From: Escherichia coli
GTDB lineage: Bacteria; Pseudomonadota; Gammaproteobacteria; Enterobacterales; Enterobacteriaceae
NCBI RefSeq assembly: GCF_036507355.1
Contig: NZ_AP027877.1
Strand: one strand, 5' to 3'
Length of the DNA stretch: 64,000 nt
The notes beneath the pieces were generated by a model, which saw only the letters and a program-made list of their open reading frames with translations, made no database searches and was not told the origin of the DNA. Numbering within the stretch: position 1 is the first letter of the stretch; every line of letters starts with the position of its first letter. Below are positions 49,164-58,253 of the stretch, piece by piece. The position numbers and the translations under genes are program-made.

Positions 49164-50810
49164 TTATTCAATCTCTTCACAGGCATCCTGAGTTAACCGC
49201 CGCATAATATCTTTTCTTAACAAAAACTTTTGTATTTTACCTGAGGCAGTGCGCGGTAGTTTTTCGATTACCACGATATGTTCAGGATATTTATATTTTG
49301 CGACCCGTTTACGGCTAAAAAAAGCCACCACCTCTTCCAGCGATAATGAATGATGCGGCGCTTTCAGCACGACATAAGCGCATGATCGTTCACCTAAACG
49401 TTCATCGGGCATTGCAACCACACAGGCATCGTGAATTTTAGGATGCTGCAATAAAATATCTTCCACTTCACGGCTGCTAATATTTTCGCCGCCGCGGACA
49501 ATAATATCTTTTTTGCGTCCGGTAATTTTTATATAGCCAGCCTCATCCATGCGGCAGAGATCGCCGCTGTAATACCAGCCTTCTTCATCCAGGGCACGGG
49601 CGGTTAATTCAGGTTCATCAAAATACCCCATAAACACATTGGGGCCACGCGAGGCTTCTTCACCTTCGCAACCTGGCGGTAAGGTCTTGCGTGCGTCATC
49701 GACCACTTTAATCTCTACACCTGCGGCAGCGTAACCATCGGTGTGCATAAAGCGCGACAAAGGATCATCGAGATTCACCACCGCATGCGGCGAACTTTCT
49801 GTGGAACCATAAACACTTAATAATTTAATGCCGCGCTGCTGGCATTCACGTGCCACTTTTTTGGGGATTGTGGTACCGCCGCAAAGAAAGAAACGCAGCG
49901 CTGAAAGGTCTGCGGGCTGTTTCTCTAGTAAATTCAAAAGATCATAGACAAACGGCGTTGCGCCGAGCATACAGGTGCAACGCTGCTGCTCAAGCAGCGC
50001 GAGACACGCATCAGGAGTGAAAATATCTAACAACACGCTGCGAGCGCCAATTAAGAATGGTGCCGTTACGCCATGCAGAAAGCCCGTTGCGTGACCAAGT
50101 GGCGCAGGCATCATAAAGACATCCTGCCAGGTCAGATTCAGCCGCGCGCAATAAGCTCGCTCACTGGCGAGAATATTGTTATGCGTTAGCATCACGCCCT
50201 TTGGCAGGCCCTCGGTTCCGGAGGTAAACAGCACCGCGGCTAATTCATCGCCGTGGGTCGTTATCGCCGTGGTCAGTGGGGTATTGTCGGCGATAATCTG
50301 ACTTAATGAGAGGGAAGAGGTGGCGGGAGCCAGTTTGTCCACGCCGACAATTTGTTGTAGTTGTGGAAGCTGATTTTGCAGCGGCAGGATTAAATCTACC
50401 GGACGCGTTTGTTTAAACAACGTCGGTGCAAAGAACATTTTTGCCTGACACTTATTGAGCACCCACACCAGTTCTGCTTCTCGCCAGGAAGGCAACAACG
50501 GCACGGAAACCGCACCGGTTTTCAGGCAGGCAAGATAGATAACAGTAAATTCACACCAGCCAGGCAGCTGAAAAGCGATGCGATCGCCCGATTCAATACC
50601 GTTAGCCAGTAACCAGCTTGCCAGACAGTTCGCGGCGTGATCGAGTGCGCTATAGGTGTACGATGCACCATGATTATCGACCACGGCAATTTTGTCAGGC
50701 ATCGCACGAGCGGTCTGCTGCCAGTAATCAGCCAGCGAAGCATCGCCCCATAACCCTTGCTGACGATACGCCGCACGACGTTGTTCGTTAAACGTTAATG
50801 TCACTTTCAT
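49164..50810 (-). CDS. fadK: Short-chain acyl-CoA synthetase
   Basis: 548-aa ORF with AMP-binding motifs (TSGTEGLPKG). Confidence 0.9.
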   Translation of the reverse strand: MKVTLTFNEQRRAAYRQQGLWGDASLADYWQQTARAMPDKIAVVDNHGASYTYSALDHAANCLASWLLANGIESGDRIAFQLPGWCEFTVIYLACLKTGAVSVPLLPSWREAELVWVLNKCQAKMFFAPTLFKQTRPVDLILPLQNQLPQLQQIVGVDKLAPATSSLSLSQIIADNTPLTTAITTHGDELAAVLFTSGTEGLPKGVMLTHNNILASERAYCARLNLTWQDVFMMPAPLGHATGFLHGVTAPFLIGARSVLLDIFTPDACLALLEQQRCTCMLGATPFVYDLLNLLEKQPADLSALRFFLCGGTTIPKKVARECQQRGIKLLSVYGSTESSPHAVVNLDDPLSRFMHTDGYAAAGVEIKVVDDARKTLPPGCEGEEASRGPNVFMGYFDEPELTARALDEEGWYYSGDLCRMDEAGYIKITGRKKDIIVRGGENISSREVEDILLQHPKIHDACVVAMPDERLGERSCAYVVLKAPHHSLSLEEVVAFFSRKRVAKYKYPEHIVVIEKLPRTASGKIQKFLLRKDIMRRLTQDACEEIE

Positions 50811-50866
50811 TTTGGACTCTCGAAACAGAACGTCAGGCCCGATGTGCGGGCCTGTGGGATGCGTGA

Positions 50867-51160
50867 TTAGCCGTAACGGAAATCAATACCGAAGGTGCCT
50901 GCGGGGTATTGCCATTGTTCGAGAATAGTGTTGCCACACAGCACCCGACAGGTGCCGCACTCCAGACAACCGGCAGAATCAAAATGAATGTTTCCTGCAT
51001 CATCCTGCTTATACAGTCCGGCAGGGCAGGCTTTCATTAATTTTTGAAATTCTTTGATGTCGGGATTTGCCGCCAGAATGATATGCGGATGGCCCTCATC
51101 AACATGGAATTTATTGACGCCTAATTTGACGTCAACGTTGACCGTAGCGTTCTGGCTCAT
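50867..51160 (-). CDS. ydiT: Ferredoxin-like protein (FixX-like)
   Basis: 97-aa ORF with Cys cluster; 4-nt overlap with ydiS. Confidence 0.88.
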   Translation of the reverse strand: MSQNATVNVDVKLGVNKFHVDEGHPHIILAANPDIKEFQKLMKACPAGLYKQDDAGNIHFDSAGCLECGTCRVLCGNTILEQWQYPAGTFGIDFRYG

Positions 51161-56644: not shown

Positions 56645-56657
56645 CGTGATACTCCTG

Positions 56658-58253
56658 TTAATGAGCCGCTTCAGGCAGGACAAAACCCATCGCCGCATCG
56701 ATAAATAATCTTTCGTCCATCAGTTTGAGTTCTGGCGAAATCACTGGGGTGAAATCCATTTTGTCGAGAATATCTTTTTGTAAATCGACGCCAGGGGCGA
56801 TTTCGATTAAATGCAGGCCGTCTTCTTTCAGCGTGAATACTGCGCGCTCAGTGATATAACGAACATCCAGCCCTCGCTCGAGAGCGATTTTTCCGCTGAA
56901 AGTAATTTCCGGTAGTTCCCGAATAAATTTCTTCACCCGTCCTTCCTGGACGATATTTAATTTGCCGTCGGTAATTTCTGTTTTTAAACTGCCCGCAGTT
57001 AATGTGCCGCAGAAAATGATTTTCTTCGAAGTGGCACTGATATCAATAAATCCACCGGTGCCCATGATTTTACCATTGAATTTATGCACGCCGACGTTAC
57101 CGTGCTGGTCGACTTCAGCAAAACTCAAATAACAAACATCCAGACCACCACCGTGATAAAAATCAAACTGGGACGTCATATCCAGAATGGCACGGGTATT
57201 CACGTTCGCGCCAAAGGCGATACCCTGTGAAGTAATTCCGCCAATCGGACCTGTTTCTACCGTCAGAATAAAGTCATCAGCACAACCTTCTTCCCGGGCG
57301 ACCAGGCCAATGCCGTCAGCAATACCGACGCCGACATTCCCCACCGCGCCTTTACGCATTTCGAATAATGCACGCCGCGCAACTAATTTACGTTGGTTTA
57401 GGGGCAGGCTAAGTTTGGTGCTGTCATCAAGGGTGAAGTCACCAGAAATAAAGCGGTTAACCGGCGCACCGCCATACAGTTGGGTTTGATCCGGATCGAC
57501 CACCACAATATCCACCAGATAACCCGGAATACGGACAGATTTAGGATGCAGCGTGGCTTTCTTAACCATTTTCTGCACCTGCATCATCACAATACCGCCG
57601 TTATTGTGCACCGCCTGGGCAATAACCAATGCGTCGAGATACATCACCTCATCTTCAAAAGTGGCGTAGCCTTCGCTGTCGCAGGTGGTAGCGCGAATGA
57701 AGGCGATATCTGGCGCAATCGCTTTGTAATAGAGATATTCTTTGTTATCAAACTCGACCAGTTTAATCAGGTCTTCTTTAGTGACTTCATTCAGTTTGCC
57801 GCCTTGCTGGCGTGGATCGACAAATGTCCCGATGCCAATATCACTAATAATACCTGGCTGGTGGGCTGCGGCGGCGCGTAAGGTTTGTGTAAGTACACCT
57901 TGTGGATAGTTATAAGCAATAATTTTATTTTGTTCTGCGAGATCAGAAATACGCGGCGATTGTCCCCAGTGACCGCATAATGCCCATTTCACCAGACCTT
58001 CTTGCGCCAGCGGACTAATACCGCGGTCGGCGCGATCGCCAAGCCCTGTTGGACTAATAATCGATAAATTACGTGGCGTTTGAGTCTGTTTATATTTATC
58101 AGCAAGAGCAGTAATTAACGTGGTGGCTTCCAGAATACCGCCGCCAGCGCCTAACACACAAAGTGTTGCTTCGTCGGGAATATAATTCACCGCTTCCTGT
58201 GCCGACAGGACCGGCACTCGTCCATTAATACGAGGTGGTTTTACAGGTTTCAT
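56658..58253 (-). CDS. ydiF: Acyl-CoA:acetate CoA-transferase-family protein
   Basis: 531-aa ORF. Confidence 0.9.
   Translation of the reverse strand: MKPVKPPRINGRVPVLSAQEAVNYIPDEATLCVLGAGGGILEATTLITALADKYKQTQTPRNLSIISPTGLGDRADRGISPLAQEGLVKWALCGHWGQSPRISDLAEQNKIIAYNYPQGVLTQTLRAAAAHQPGIISDIGIGTFVDPRQQGGKLNEVTKEDLIKLVEFDNKEYLYYKAIAPDIAFIRATTCDSEGYATFEDEVMYLDALVIAQAVHNNGGIVMMQVQKMVKKATLHPKSVRIPGYLVDIVVVDPDQTQLYGGAPVNRFISGDFTLDDSTKLSLPLNQRKLVARRALFEMRKGAVGNVGVGIADGIGLVAREEGCADDFILTVETGPIGGITSQGIAFGANVNTRAILDMTSQFDFYHGGGLDVCYLSFAEVDQHGNVGVHKFNGKIMGTGGFIDISATSKKIIFCGTLTAGSLKTEITDGKLNIVQEGRVKKFIRELPEITFSGKIALERGLDVRYITERAVFTLKEDGLHLIEIAPGVDLQKDILDKMDFTPVISPELKLMDERLFIDAAMGFVLPEAAH

Follow-up and report, generated by a model that had tools for sequence, protein, structure and literature searches.

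The ydi locus of Escherichia coli is a Cai/Fix-like coenzyme A redox module with probable functional links to ydiN, ydiB and aroD

We analyzed a 64,000-nucleotide stretch of the Escherichia coli chromosome (contig NZ_AP027877.1, assembly GCF_036507355.1; hereafter the window), in which positions 49164–58253 hold the chromosomal ydiF-ydiO / ydiP / ydiQRST-fadK locus, under purifying selection. The reading we favor, with modest confidence, is that this known locus encodes a Cai/Fix-like coenzyme A (CoA) redox module linked to electron-transfer flavoproteins (ETFs) and functionally coupled to ydiN-ydiB-aroD. New in this analysis are the conserved linkage of YdiO clusters with genes for YdiB-type and AroD-type enzymes and a shared candidate operator, both drawn from sequence comparison, which together indicate that the functional unit extends into aroD-ydiB-ydiN. 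An initial annotation, made from the letters of the window, had ended the system at ydiF and described it as an anaerobic beta-oxidation-like cluster, and was too narrow in both extent and substrate. As a proposal that we regard as possible rather than probable, ydiN-ydiB-aroD-ydiF-ydiO, ydiP and ydiQRST-fadK may form one regulon for an unrecognized CoA-dependent reduction of quinate via shikimate to dihydroshikimate that would act as an anaerobic electron sink.

Linkage was assessed in the genomic contexts of YdiO homologs (approximately nine contexts, picked by YdiO similarity), with orthologs taken at 77–87% identity. ydiN-ydiB-aroD-ydiF-ydiO were co-directional and tightly spaced in both K-12 and the window. 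A gene for a YdiB-type dehydrogenase and/or an AroD-type dehydroquinase was clustered with the YdiO ortholog in seven of eight arrangements, and these shikimate-type genes were sometimes placed between the ETF and FixC-like genes. Writing MFS for major facilitator superfamily transporter, CoAT for CoA-transferase, ACAD for acyl-CoA dehydrogenase, ETFa and ETFb for the ETF alpha and beta subunits, SDH for shikimate dehydrogenase-type enzyme and DHQase for dehydroquinase, gene orders (with YdiO identities) included MFS, a minus-strand AraC gene and MFS-CoAT-ACAD-ETFb-ETFa-SDH-type I DHQase-FixC-FixX in L011 (83%), MFS-CoAT-ACAD-ETFb-ETFa-DHQase-FixC-FixX-ligase in L012 (77%), ETFa-SDH-DHQase-ApbA-MaoC at the end of L094 (83%), SDH-DHQase-CoAT-ACAD in L099 (84%), and ligase-FixX-FixC-ETFa-ETFb divergent from MFS-SDH-DHQase-CoAT-ACAD in L095 (80%). 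The order in L093 (87%) was E. coli-like and adjoined a hydrogenase, and a Serratia locus (L101) carried the entire ydiL-to-fadK block in a different chromosomal neighborhood, beside arsenic-resistance genes. AroD-type genes lay inside all seven of these clusters; the single arrangement without shikimate genes was L097 (82%), with MFS-CoAT-ACAD only. In L094, genes for an ApbA-type reductase, a MaoC dehydratase and a glyoxalase-fold protein (15197–17125 of that locus) stood in place of FixCX, which hints at further processing of a ring acyl-CoA.

The clustered dehydrogenases were 67–80% identical to YdiB compared with 25–28% to AroE, and the clustered dehydroquinases were 65–71% identical to AroD. 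YdiN-type MFS genes headed the orthologous clusters, which ranged in GC content from 42 to 60%. Among named relatives of the L011 dehydrogenase, the closest was from Saezia sp., a betaproteobacterium, and the host of that cluster is probably a betaproteobacterium as well. Linkage survives transfer between classes and internal reshuffling, which argues for functional coupling.

As a control, we used 77 loci (1.16 Mb) around distant ACADs, obtained from an 80-locus contig scan with generic ACAD patterns back-translated from the YdiO alignment; with 77 of its 80 loci being distant ACADs, that scan was uninformative on the distribution of orthologs, and a YdiB homolog search yielded mostly E. coli variants, without taxonomic spread. 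No SDH-like or type I DHQase-like gene was found in any of the 77 control loci, 13 of which carried ETF genes and 17 ligases. Shikimate-pathway genes were likewise absent from the clusters with a YdiO-like ACAD of 62–69% identity, in Desulfovibrio desulfuricans (L004), Pectobacteriaceae (L006) and Escherichia albertii (L008 and L015). All three taxa had a second ACAD together with an MFS transporter and ETF genes, and a family III CoA-transferase, FixCX-like genes and a ligase were each present in only some. The E. albertii cluster is an island between ung and a yfiF-type gene. Adjacency of a quinate dehydrogenase and a dehydroquinase, here ydiB and aroD, is also a feature of classical qui/qut catabolism; neither the orthologous E. 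coli region nor the ydi-type clusters that we examined had annotated genes for dehydroshikimate dehydratase or protocatechuate cleavage.

In K-12, Citrobacter werkmanii, L093, L011 and L095, we also found a direct repeat, TGCAAGAT-N13-TGCAAGAT, upstream of the ydiN-type gene (7287–7328 in the K-12 locus L002, 5084 in L014, 4784 in L093, 2770 in L011 and 4237 in L095). Pairs of TGCAAGAT in a 21-bp register, with at most one mismatch per half-site, occurred seven times in 176 kb of ydi-type loci compared with 0.14 expected (200 shuffles, maximum 2). All seven were in regulatory spacers, six upstream of ydiN-type genes and one in the AraC/ETFb spacer of L093, and none were found in the cai/fix locus or in the 62–69% clusters. 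In Serratia, two exact half-sites lay upstream of the ETFb gene and TACAATAT-N13-TGCAATAT lay upstream of the ydiN-type gene. Within the ydiQ-ydiP spacer of the window, exact copies of TGCAAGATTGT were located at 54340–54350 and 54412–54422 (ydiQ sense), upstream of ydiQ, and both were also present in K-12 and in strain MLI023K1, the best hit; the ydiN-upstream copy of the motif has been removed from the window by an IS1-linked deletion. Dimers of AraC-family regulators bind direct repeats two helical turns apart. The spacing of the repeat matches this mode of binding, making it a plausible YdiP operator that would unite both operons in one regulon. As far as could be found, the repeat appears not to have been described before.

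Published expression data and further scans bear on how these genes are regulated. ydiN, ydiB and aroD were co-induced in a shikimate-accumulating strain (PMC4585142). The sequence TTGACGTAAATCAA, inside ydiP, has two mismatches to the FNR pattern TTGATNNNNATCAA, and the same sequence is listed for the target ‘ydiP/ydiQ’ from chromatin immunoprecipitation on arrays (ChIP-chip) with FNR (PMC1802558). An FNR consensus scan gave 46 matches compared with 36.5 expected; the two promoter spacers had none, and only the site inside ydiP that was already published is of note. Promoter (13 vs. a shuffle mean of 16.3) and terminator (23 vs. 16.2) scans were both within 2 standard deviations and were not used for operon calls.

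Identities with the proteins of the K-12 carnitine system were 48% over the full length for YdiO and CaiA, 56% for YdiQ and FixA, 45% for YdiR and FixB, 62% for YdiS and FixC, 64% for YdiT and FixX, and 29% for FadK and CaiC. The resemblance to Fix/ETF-dependent acyl-CoA dehydrogenase systems that the initial annotation had pointed out is therefore real, with 45–64% identity between YdiQRST and FixABCX. No Ydi protein had a blastp match to CaiB, CaiD or CaiT. By these comparisons, the ydi locus is a paralog of the cai/fix system, as a paralogous variant rather than a cai/fix member. YdiO and CaiA both have a Glu in the NFEMERL/EFDHERF stretch and a Gly at the position of the catalytic Glu (that of YEG) of medium-chain acyl-CoA dehydrogenase (MCAD), and thereby agree in where the likely catalytic Glu is placed, with positions assigned by reference to the isovaleryl-CoA and medium-chain enzymes. 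CaiA, the closest characterized paralog of YdiO, is annotated as a reductase and not as a catabolic dehydrogenase.

In the proposed pathway, which is modeled on the conversion of carnitine to gamma-butyrobetaine and would act as an anaerobic electron sink, YdiN would import quinate or shikimate and YdiP would sense the acid. YdiB would convert quinate to 3-dehydroquinate by oxidation, AroD would convert this to 3-dehydroshikimate by dehydration and YdiB would in turn produce shikimate by reduction, for a net redox-neutral dehydration yielding an alpha,beta-unsaturated acid. The cycle would be primed by FadK, after which YdiF would recycle CoA to form shikimoyl-CoA, as CaiC and CaiB do for their substrate. 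Because shikimate is a 1-cyclohexene-1-carboxylate, shikimoyl-CoA is an enoyl-CoA, and YdiO may reduce its C1=C2 bond as CaiA reduces crotonobetainyl-CoA, with electrons passing from quinol through YdiS/YdiT and YdiQR to YdiO. YdiF would release dihydroshikimate, and the dual quinate/shikimate specificity of YdiB would gain a purpose. Other bacteria have been shown to reduce the shikimate enoate in a respiratory reaction in the gut, and faeces contain shikimate (bioRxiv 10.1101/2022.12.26.521950). Small hints in the same direction are that the second-best NCBIfam match of FadK was to cyclohexanecarboxylate-CoA ligase (TIGR03208, 420 bits, below its cut-off) and that the C6–C8 optimum of FadK is close to the size of a C7 ring acid.

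As a sequence feature, the ydi block is already known, named and near-universal in E. coli, such that its intactness is ordinary. Of 5426 complete E. coli genomes searched with megablast, 5346 contained at least 80% of the block; the best identity over the block was 98.5%, and the window therefore belongs to none of these genomes. All eight genes had the K-12 length, zero internal stops and 1–10 amino-acid changes, with ratios of nonsynonymous to synonymous substitution (dN/dS) of 0.02–0.37, and aroD and ydiB were likewise full length, with low dN/dS in the same range and no frameshift or stop. High presence across E. coli together with intact open reading frames (ORFs) indicates real coding sequence and not chance, and the frameshifts that the initial annotation had named as grounds for doubt are excluded. 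Its gene identities agreed with Pfam, NCBIfam and the K-12 annotation. It had also correctly described fadK-ydiT-ydiS-ydiR-ydiQ as a closely spaced minus-strand block in which ydiT and ydiS overlap by 4 nt (51157–51160); the remaining gaps are 56 nt (fadK-ydiT), 55 nt (ydiS-ydiR) and 19 nt (ydiR-ydiQ), with 13 nt between ydiF and ydiO. Its placement of ydiP as divergent holds with respect to ydiQ only, across a 314-nt spacer, and ydiO and ydiF do not follow ydiP but lie on the minus strand and converge on it, with the stop codons of ydiP and ydiO 42 nt apart. aroD is co-directional with ydiF and lies 143 nt upstream of it. For ydiQ and ydiO, mechanical ORF calling gives starts that lie more upstream, a TTG at 54323 and an ATG at 56698, respectively.

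Table 1 Features of the ydi region and its surroundings, in coordinates of the window.
Feature	Position	Strand	Description
fadK (ydiD)	49164–50810	-	Acyl-CoA synthetase, 548 aa
ydiT	50867–51160	-	FixX-like ferredoxin-like protein, 97 aa
ydiS	51157–52446	-	FixC-like FAD oxidoreductase with ETF-QO (ETF:quinone oxidoreductase) ubiquinone-binding-type domain, 429 aa
ydiR	52502–53440	-	ETF alpha (FixB-like), 312 aa
ydiQ	53460–54224	-	ETF beta (FixA-like), 254 aa
ydiQ-ydiP divergent control region	54225–54538		Two exact TGCAAGATTGT copies
ydiP	54539–55450	+	AraC-family regulator with cupin ligand-binding domain, 303 aa
FNR-type site TTGACGTAAATCAA	54674–54687		Inside ydiP; pattern scan
ydiO	55493–56644	-	CaiA-like FAD acyl-CoA dehydrogenase / enoyl-CoA reductase, 383 aa
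ydiF	56658–58253	-	Family I CoA-transferase, fused alpha/beta subunits, 531 aa
aroD	58397–59155	-	Type I 3-dehydroquinate dehydratase; outside the coordinates of the initial annotation
ydiB	59186–60052	-	NAD(P)-dependent quinate/shikimate dehydrogenase
ydiN'	60064–61065	-	MFS transporter gene, truncated
IS1 copy 1	15632–16399	+	In chbC, adjacent ~3.4 kb deletion; outside the ydi system
IS1 copy 2	61066–61833	+	Adjacent ~2.2 kb deletion (ydiL, ydiM, 5' ydiN)

Six NCBIfam equivalog or subfamily models exceeded their curated cut-offs, namely those for FadK (NF004758, 1086 bits vs. 736), YdiS (NF007450, 976 vs. 466), YdiR (NF008884, 686 vs. 528), YdiQ (NF008998, 497 vs. 338), YdiO (NF008997, 785 vs. 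537) and YdiB (NF009390, 668 vs. 349), and AroD matched TIGR01093 with 293 bits. Domain content comprised AMP-binding and AMP-binding_C in FadK, an adenylate-forming enzyme, PF21162 (ETFQO_UQ-bd) and FAD-binding domains in YdiS, ETF and ETF_alpha in YdiR, ETF in YdiQ, three ACAD domains in YdiO, a soluble protein, and HTH_18, Cupin_2 and AraC_binding in YdiP, which differs from its K-12 counterpart by four amino acids. YdiO also matched cyclohexane-1-carbonyl-CoA dehydrogenase models, under their cut-offs. YdiF has a CoA_trans domain (PF01144, family I) and a full-length match of 1190 bits to the E. coli YdiF structure (2AHU/2AHV/2AHW). YdiT has a CxxCxxCxxxC pattern plus a CP cysteine, with weak Pfam Fer4 matches below cut-off; it has no NCBIfam model of its own and scored 147 bits compared with the FixX cut-off of 166.

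Divergence from K-12 was concentrated in a patch at 50481–51313 (5' fadK, the spacer, ydiT and 3' ydiS), with 56 differences in approximately 830 bp (94–95% identity), while the other flanking 500-nt windows were approximately 97–99.8% identical, mostly at least 98%. The best identity of 50811–52446 among complete E. coli genomes was 97.4%. The patch keeps its ORFs intact (synonymous divergence, dS, of 0.27 in ydiT) and is probably an imported recombinant segment; gene conversion from fixCX as its source has no clear support from the 35 informative sites (15 vs. 8). FadK has ten amino-acid changes relative to K-12, and at 50862–50864 a Thr codon replaces the ATG that opens the 566-aa K-12 RefSeq FadK. 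The start at 50810 is the sole usable one here, which favors the shorter, 548-aa annotation.

The two IS1 copies are 768 bp each, differ by one mismatch and lie in direct orientation 45 kb apart, with the ydi block 2.8 kb from one and 33 kb from the other. That the block lies between them, as initially annotated, is true of its position and carries no transposon meaning or mechanistic weight. An IS1 composite transposon was rejected, with no 9-bp target duplication at either copy, core genome in the intervening DNA and a deletion beside each copy. Two IS1 copies of this kind would suit a Shigella-like lineage or another one rich in IS elements. At copy 1, the rest of chbC, chbA, chbR and part of celF are absent; E. 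coli LCP22S3_I2 has IS1 at the identical chbC position without the deletion. At copy 2, K-12 positions 1,770,574–1,772,775 are missing and the alignment stops at 1,772,776 inside ydiN, which has lost its 5' 264 nt, its promoter and the upstream candidate operator. The extended unit has thereby had its probable transporter gene damaged by one IS1, and ydiB-aroD-ydiF-ydiO sit downstream of a promoterless ydiN fragment. The description of the block as intact holds for its eight genes and not for the adjacent region, which has a truncated ydiN and has lost ydiM and ydiL. With the transporter gene and operator destroyed, the extended pathway is probably impaired in this strain. The small RNA gene rprA (61922–62029, minus strand) is intact (Rfam, 118.5 bits) 88 nt beyond IS1, and its ydiL-side neighborhood is gone. 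Other Rfam matches were the Phe leader of pheST (34565–34689), STnc540 (38530–38688) and ES036 (13282–13324), as expected for the region.

Among the alternatives, the published genetics favor fatty acids as the substrate, and no experiment ties the Ydi proteins to quinate or shikimate. In this reading, which we consider unlikely, the locus would be an anaerobic beta-oxidation module for short- and medium-chain straight-chain fatty acids (butyrate to octanoate) and the adjacency of aroD-ydiB-ydiN would be coincidental. FadK or YdiF would make the acyl-CoA and YdiO would oxidize it, electrons would pass from YdiQR through YdiST to quinone and on to nitrate or another acceptor, and FadIJ, encoded elsewhere, would finish the cycle. 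FadK is an acyl-CoA synthetase with an in-vitro optimum of C6–C8; it allows fadD mutants to grow anaerobically on fatty acids of short and medium chain length, and growth on fatty acids fails when fadD and fadK are both mutated (PMC9329746). In Salmonella, anaerobic use of butyrate with an electron acceptor is reported to require ydiQRSTD (PMC9530198; PMC6530103). In engineered reverse beta-oxidation, ydiO/ydiQRST have been used for the enoyl-CoA reductase step (PMC10318755; PMC6412132) and, going by a reference in one of these papers, they have been reported as an acyl-CoA dehydrogenase complex (PMC10318755). The ETF-QO-type quinone-site domain of YdiS and the closest solved relatives of YdiO, which are short-chain ACADs, fit the same reading. 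On the other hand, the 2022 review states that a role of YdiQR in growth on fatty acids lacks evidence and that fadK induction under anaerobiosis was not reproduced (PMC9329746). Neither 49164–58253 nor its flanks encode an enoyl-CoA hydratase, a 3-hydroxyacyl-CoA dehydrogenase or a thiolase, such that the beta-oxidation-like label given initially does not fit a set consisting of ligase, CoA-transferase and dehydrogenase. Fatty-acid oxidation also leaves unexplained the YdiB- and AroD-type genes within the operons of other taxa, in contrast to their absence from the control loci, as well as the shared TGCAAGAT motif, and the nearest characterized paralog, CaiA, works as a reductase. Several points nevertheless count against coupling to ydiN-ydiB-aroD and the hydroaromatic pathway built on it. 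The sample is small, at approximately nine contexts, and was selected by YdiO similarity; one arrangement (L097) has MFS-YdiF-YdiO only; whole-island transfer could bring passenger genes along; and aroD encodes the housekeeping dehydroquinase of E. coli, such that its position could have another cause. The YdiP operator is a computational prediction, and the direction of electron flow that we infer comes from the CaiA analogy only. Work using ChIP with sequencing stresses cold-shock genes and describes YdiP as a regulator of cold shock (PMC9283627). A literature search, with most subscription journals outside it, found nothing published that connects the Ydi proteins with quinate or shikimate. 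If the enzymes are promiscuous, fatty-acid and hydroaromatic substrates do not exclude each other, and the literature still treats the physiological role and native substrate of Ydi as unsettled (PMC9329746; PMC6412132), in line with the initial description of the role as poorly defined.

Two further readings concern the type of electron transfer and the state of the locus in this strain. The initial annotation had raised the possibility of electron bifurcation, in which YdiQRST would be a FixABCX/EtfABCX-type complex that oxidizes NADH at a second FAD in YdiQ and splits the electrons between a high-potential acceptor (YdiO/enoyl-CoA or quinone) and low-potential ferredoxin or flavodoxin. The four-subunit architecture is as in FixABCX, and the best-scoring solved relatives of YdiR and YdiQ come from bifurcating complexes (5ol2, 6fah, 7qh2 and 7koe). 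The loop at the second nucleotide site of EtfB reads DGDTAQ in bifurcating ETFs (216 ETFs; T 100%, G 95%, A 86%, D 85%) and DDDxNQ in canonical ETFs (n = 449; PMC8958531). When placed by HMMER alignment to CarD, LctB, Clostridioides difficile EtfB, Paracoccus ETF and human ETF, the corresponding ‘zipper’ motif of YdiQ is DLYAQQ, identical in E. coli FixA. It matches none of the four bifurcator-specific positions, including the 100%-conserved Thr, and fits neither EtfB class (DGDTAQ, group 2; DDDxNQ, group 1). Enoyl-CoA and quinone are moreover both of high potential, leaving, in our estimation, no obvious endergonic half-reaction, and we regard bifurcation as improbable. YdiS, with PF21162 and no Fer4_ETF_QO domain, is also not a single-chain ETF-QO with a fused 4Fe-4S domain, and the separate YdiT scored 19.8 bits against PF05187, below the cut-off of 24. 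A similarly low probability is assigned to the locus being a silent, decaying remnant in this strain, as in other host-restricted enterics, without consequence. Such decay would be consistent with the IS1-linked deletions on both sides of the wider region (the chb genes and ydiL-ydiM-5' ydiN), the loss of the probable transporter gene with its upstream operator, the divergent patch at 50481–51313, and the loss of ydiQRSTD from Salmonella Typhi (PMC6530103). It is opposed by the eight full-length genes and by aroD and ydiB, all free of frameshifts and stops and with dN/dS indicative of constraint.

The value of these results lies in function. YdiO/YdiQRST are used in engineered reverse beta-oxidation while reviews call their native substrate unknown, and the Salmonella orthologs have been connected with butyrate use and with the way in which typhoidal serovars evolved. 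The conserved linkage and the candidate operator turn the question of the native substrate into a concrete and cheap test, ydi-dependent anaerobic reduction of quinate or shikimate. If true, the proposed pathway would provide a new diet-derived electron acceptor for enterobacteria, explain the physiological role of YdiB and account for the Ydi ETF system, which is an orphan in E. coli and Salmonella.

Compared with known systems, the window is closest to the K-12 locus (b1694–b1701), which has an identical gene set, arranged in the same way, with equal lengths and the same flanking genes (ppsA and, at the opposite end, aroD-ydiB), and a nucleotide identity per gene of 93.9–99.1%; K-12 differs in having a whole ydiN and in retaining ydiM and ydiL, where the window has lost ydiM, ydiL and 5' ydiN. 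Salmonella Typhimurium ydiQRSTD is an orthologous operon, and the Salmonella YdiO cluster is 95% identical; function was assigned there from butyrate phenotypes, and ydiN-ydiB-aroD-ydiF-ydiO lie outside that assignment according to secondary sources. The bifurcating FixABCX of Azotobacter vinelandii and EtfABCX of Thermotoga maritima share the four-subunit plan of an ETF with FixC and FixX (PMC5861303), but differ in the zipper of the EtfB FAD site, and no NADH link is known for Ydi. The cai/fix system resembles the proposed unit in combining a transporter, a CoA ligase plus CoA-transferase, a dehydration that makes the enoyl thioester, its reduction and a dedicated regulator. It differs in using a family III CoA-transferase (CaiB) where ydi has family I (YdiF), CaiT and CaiF where ydi has an MFS transporter and an AraC-type regulator, and the crotonase CaiD, whereas ydi has no crotonase and its dehydroquinase and dehydrogenase would dehydrate the free acid. 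In the alicyclic acid pathways of Rhodopseudomonas palustris (AliA/AliB) and in the route from shikimate to cyclohexanecarboxyl-CoA of Streptomyces collinus, a C7 ring acid is activated with CoA and then undergoes ACAD-type redox chemistry at the alpha,beta bond of the ring. To our knowledge, these pathways have no FixCX-type partner, and the corresponding FadK and YdiO scores, far below the curated cut-offs, denote resemblance and not membership. The shikimate reductases of Eggerthella lenta and Sutterella wadsworthensis likewise reduce an enoate double bond as an anaerobic electron sink in the gut (bioRxiv 10.1101/2022.12.26.521950); each is an unrelated, single flavin reductase with the free acid as its substrate, whereas Ydi would use a CoA thioester and a chain of ACAD and ETF.

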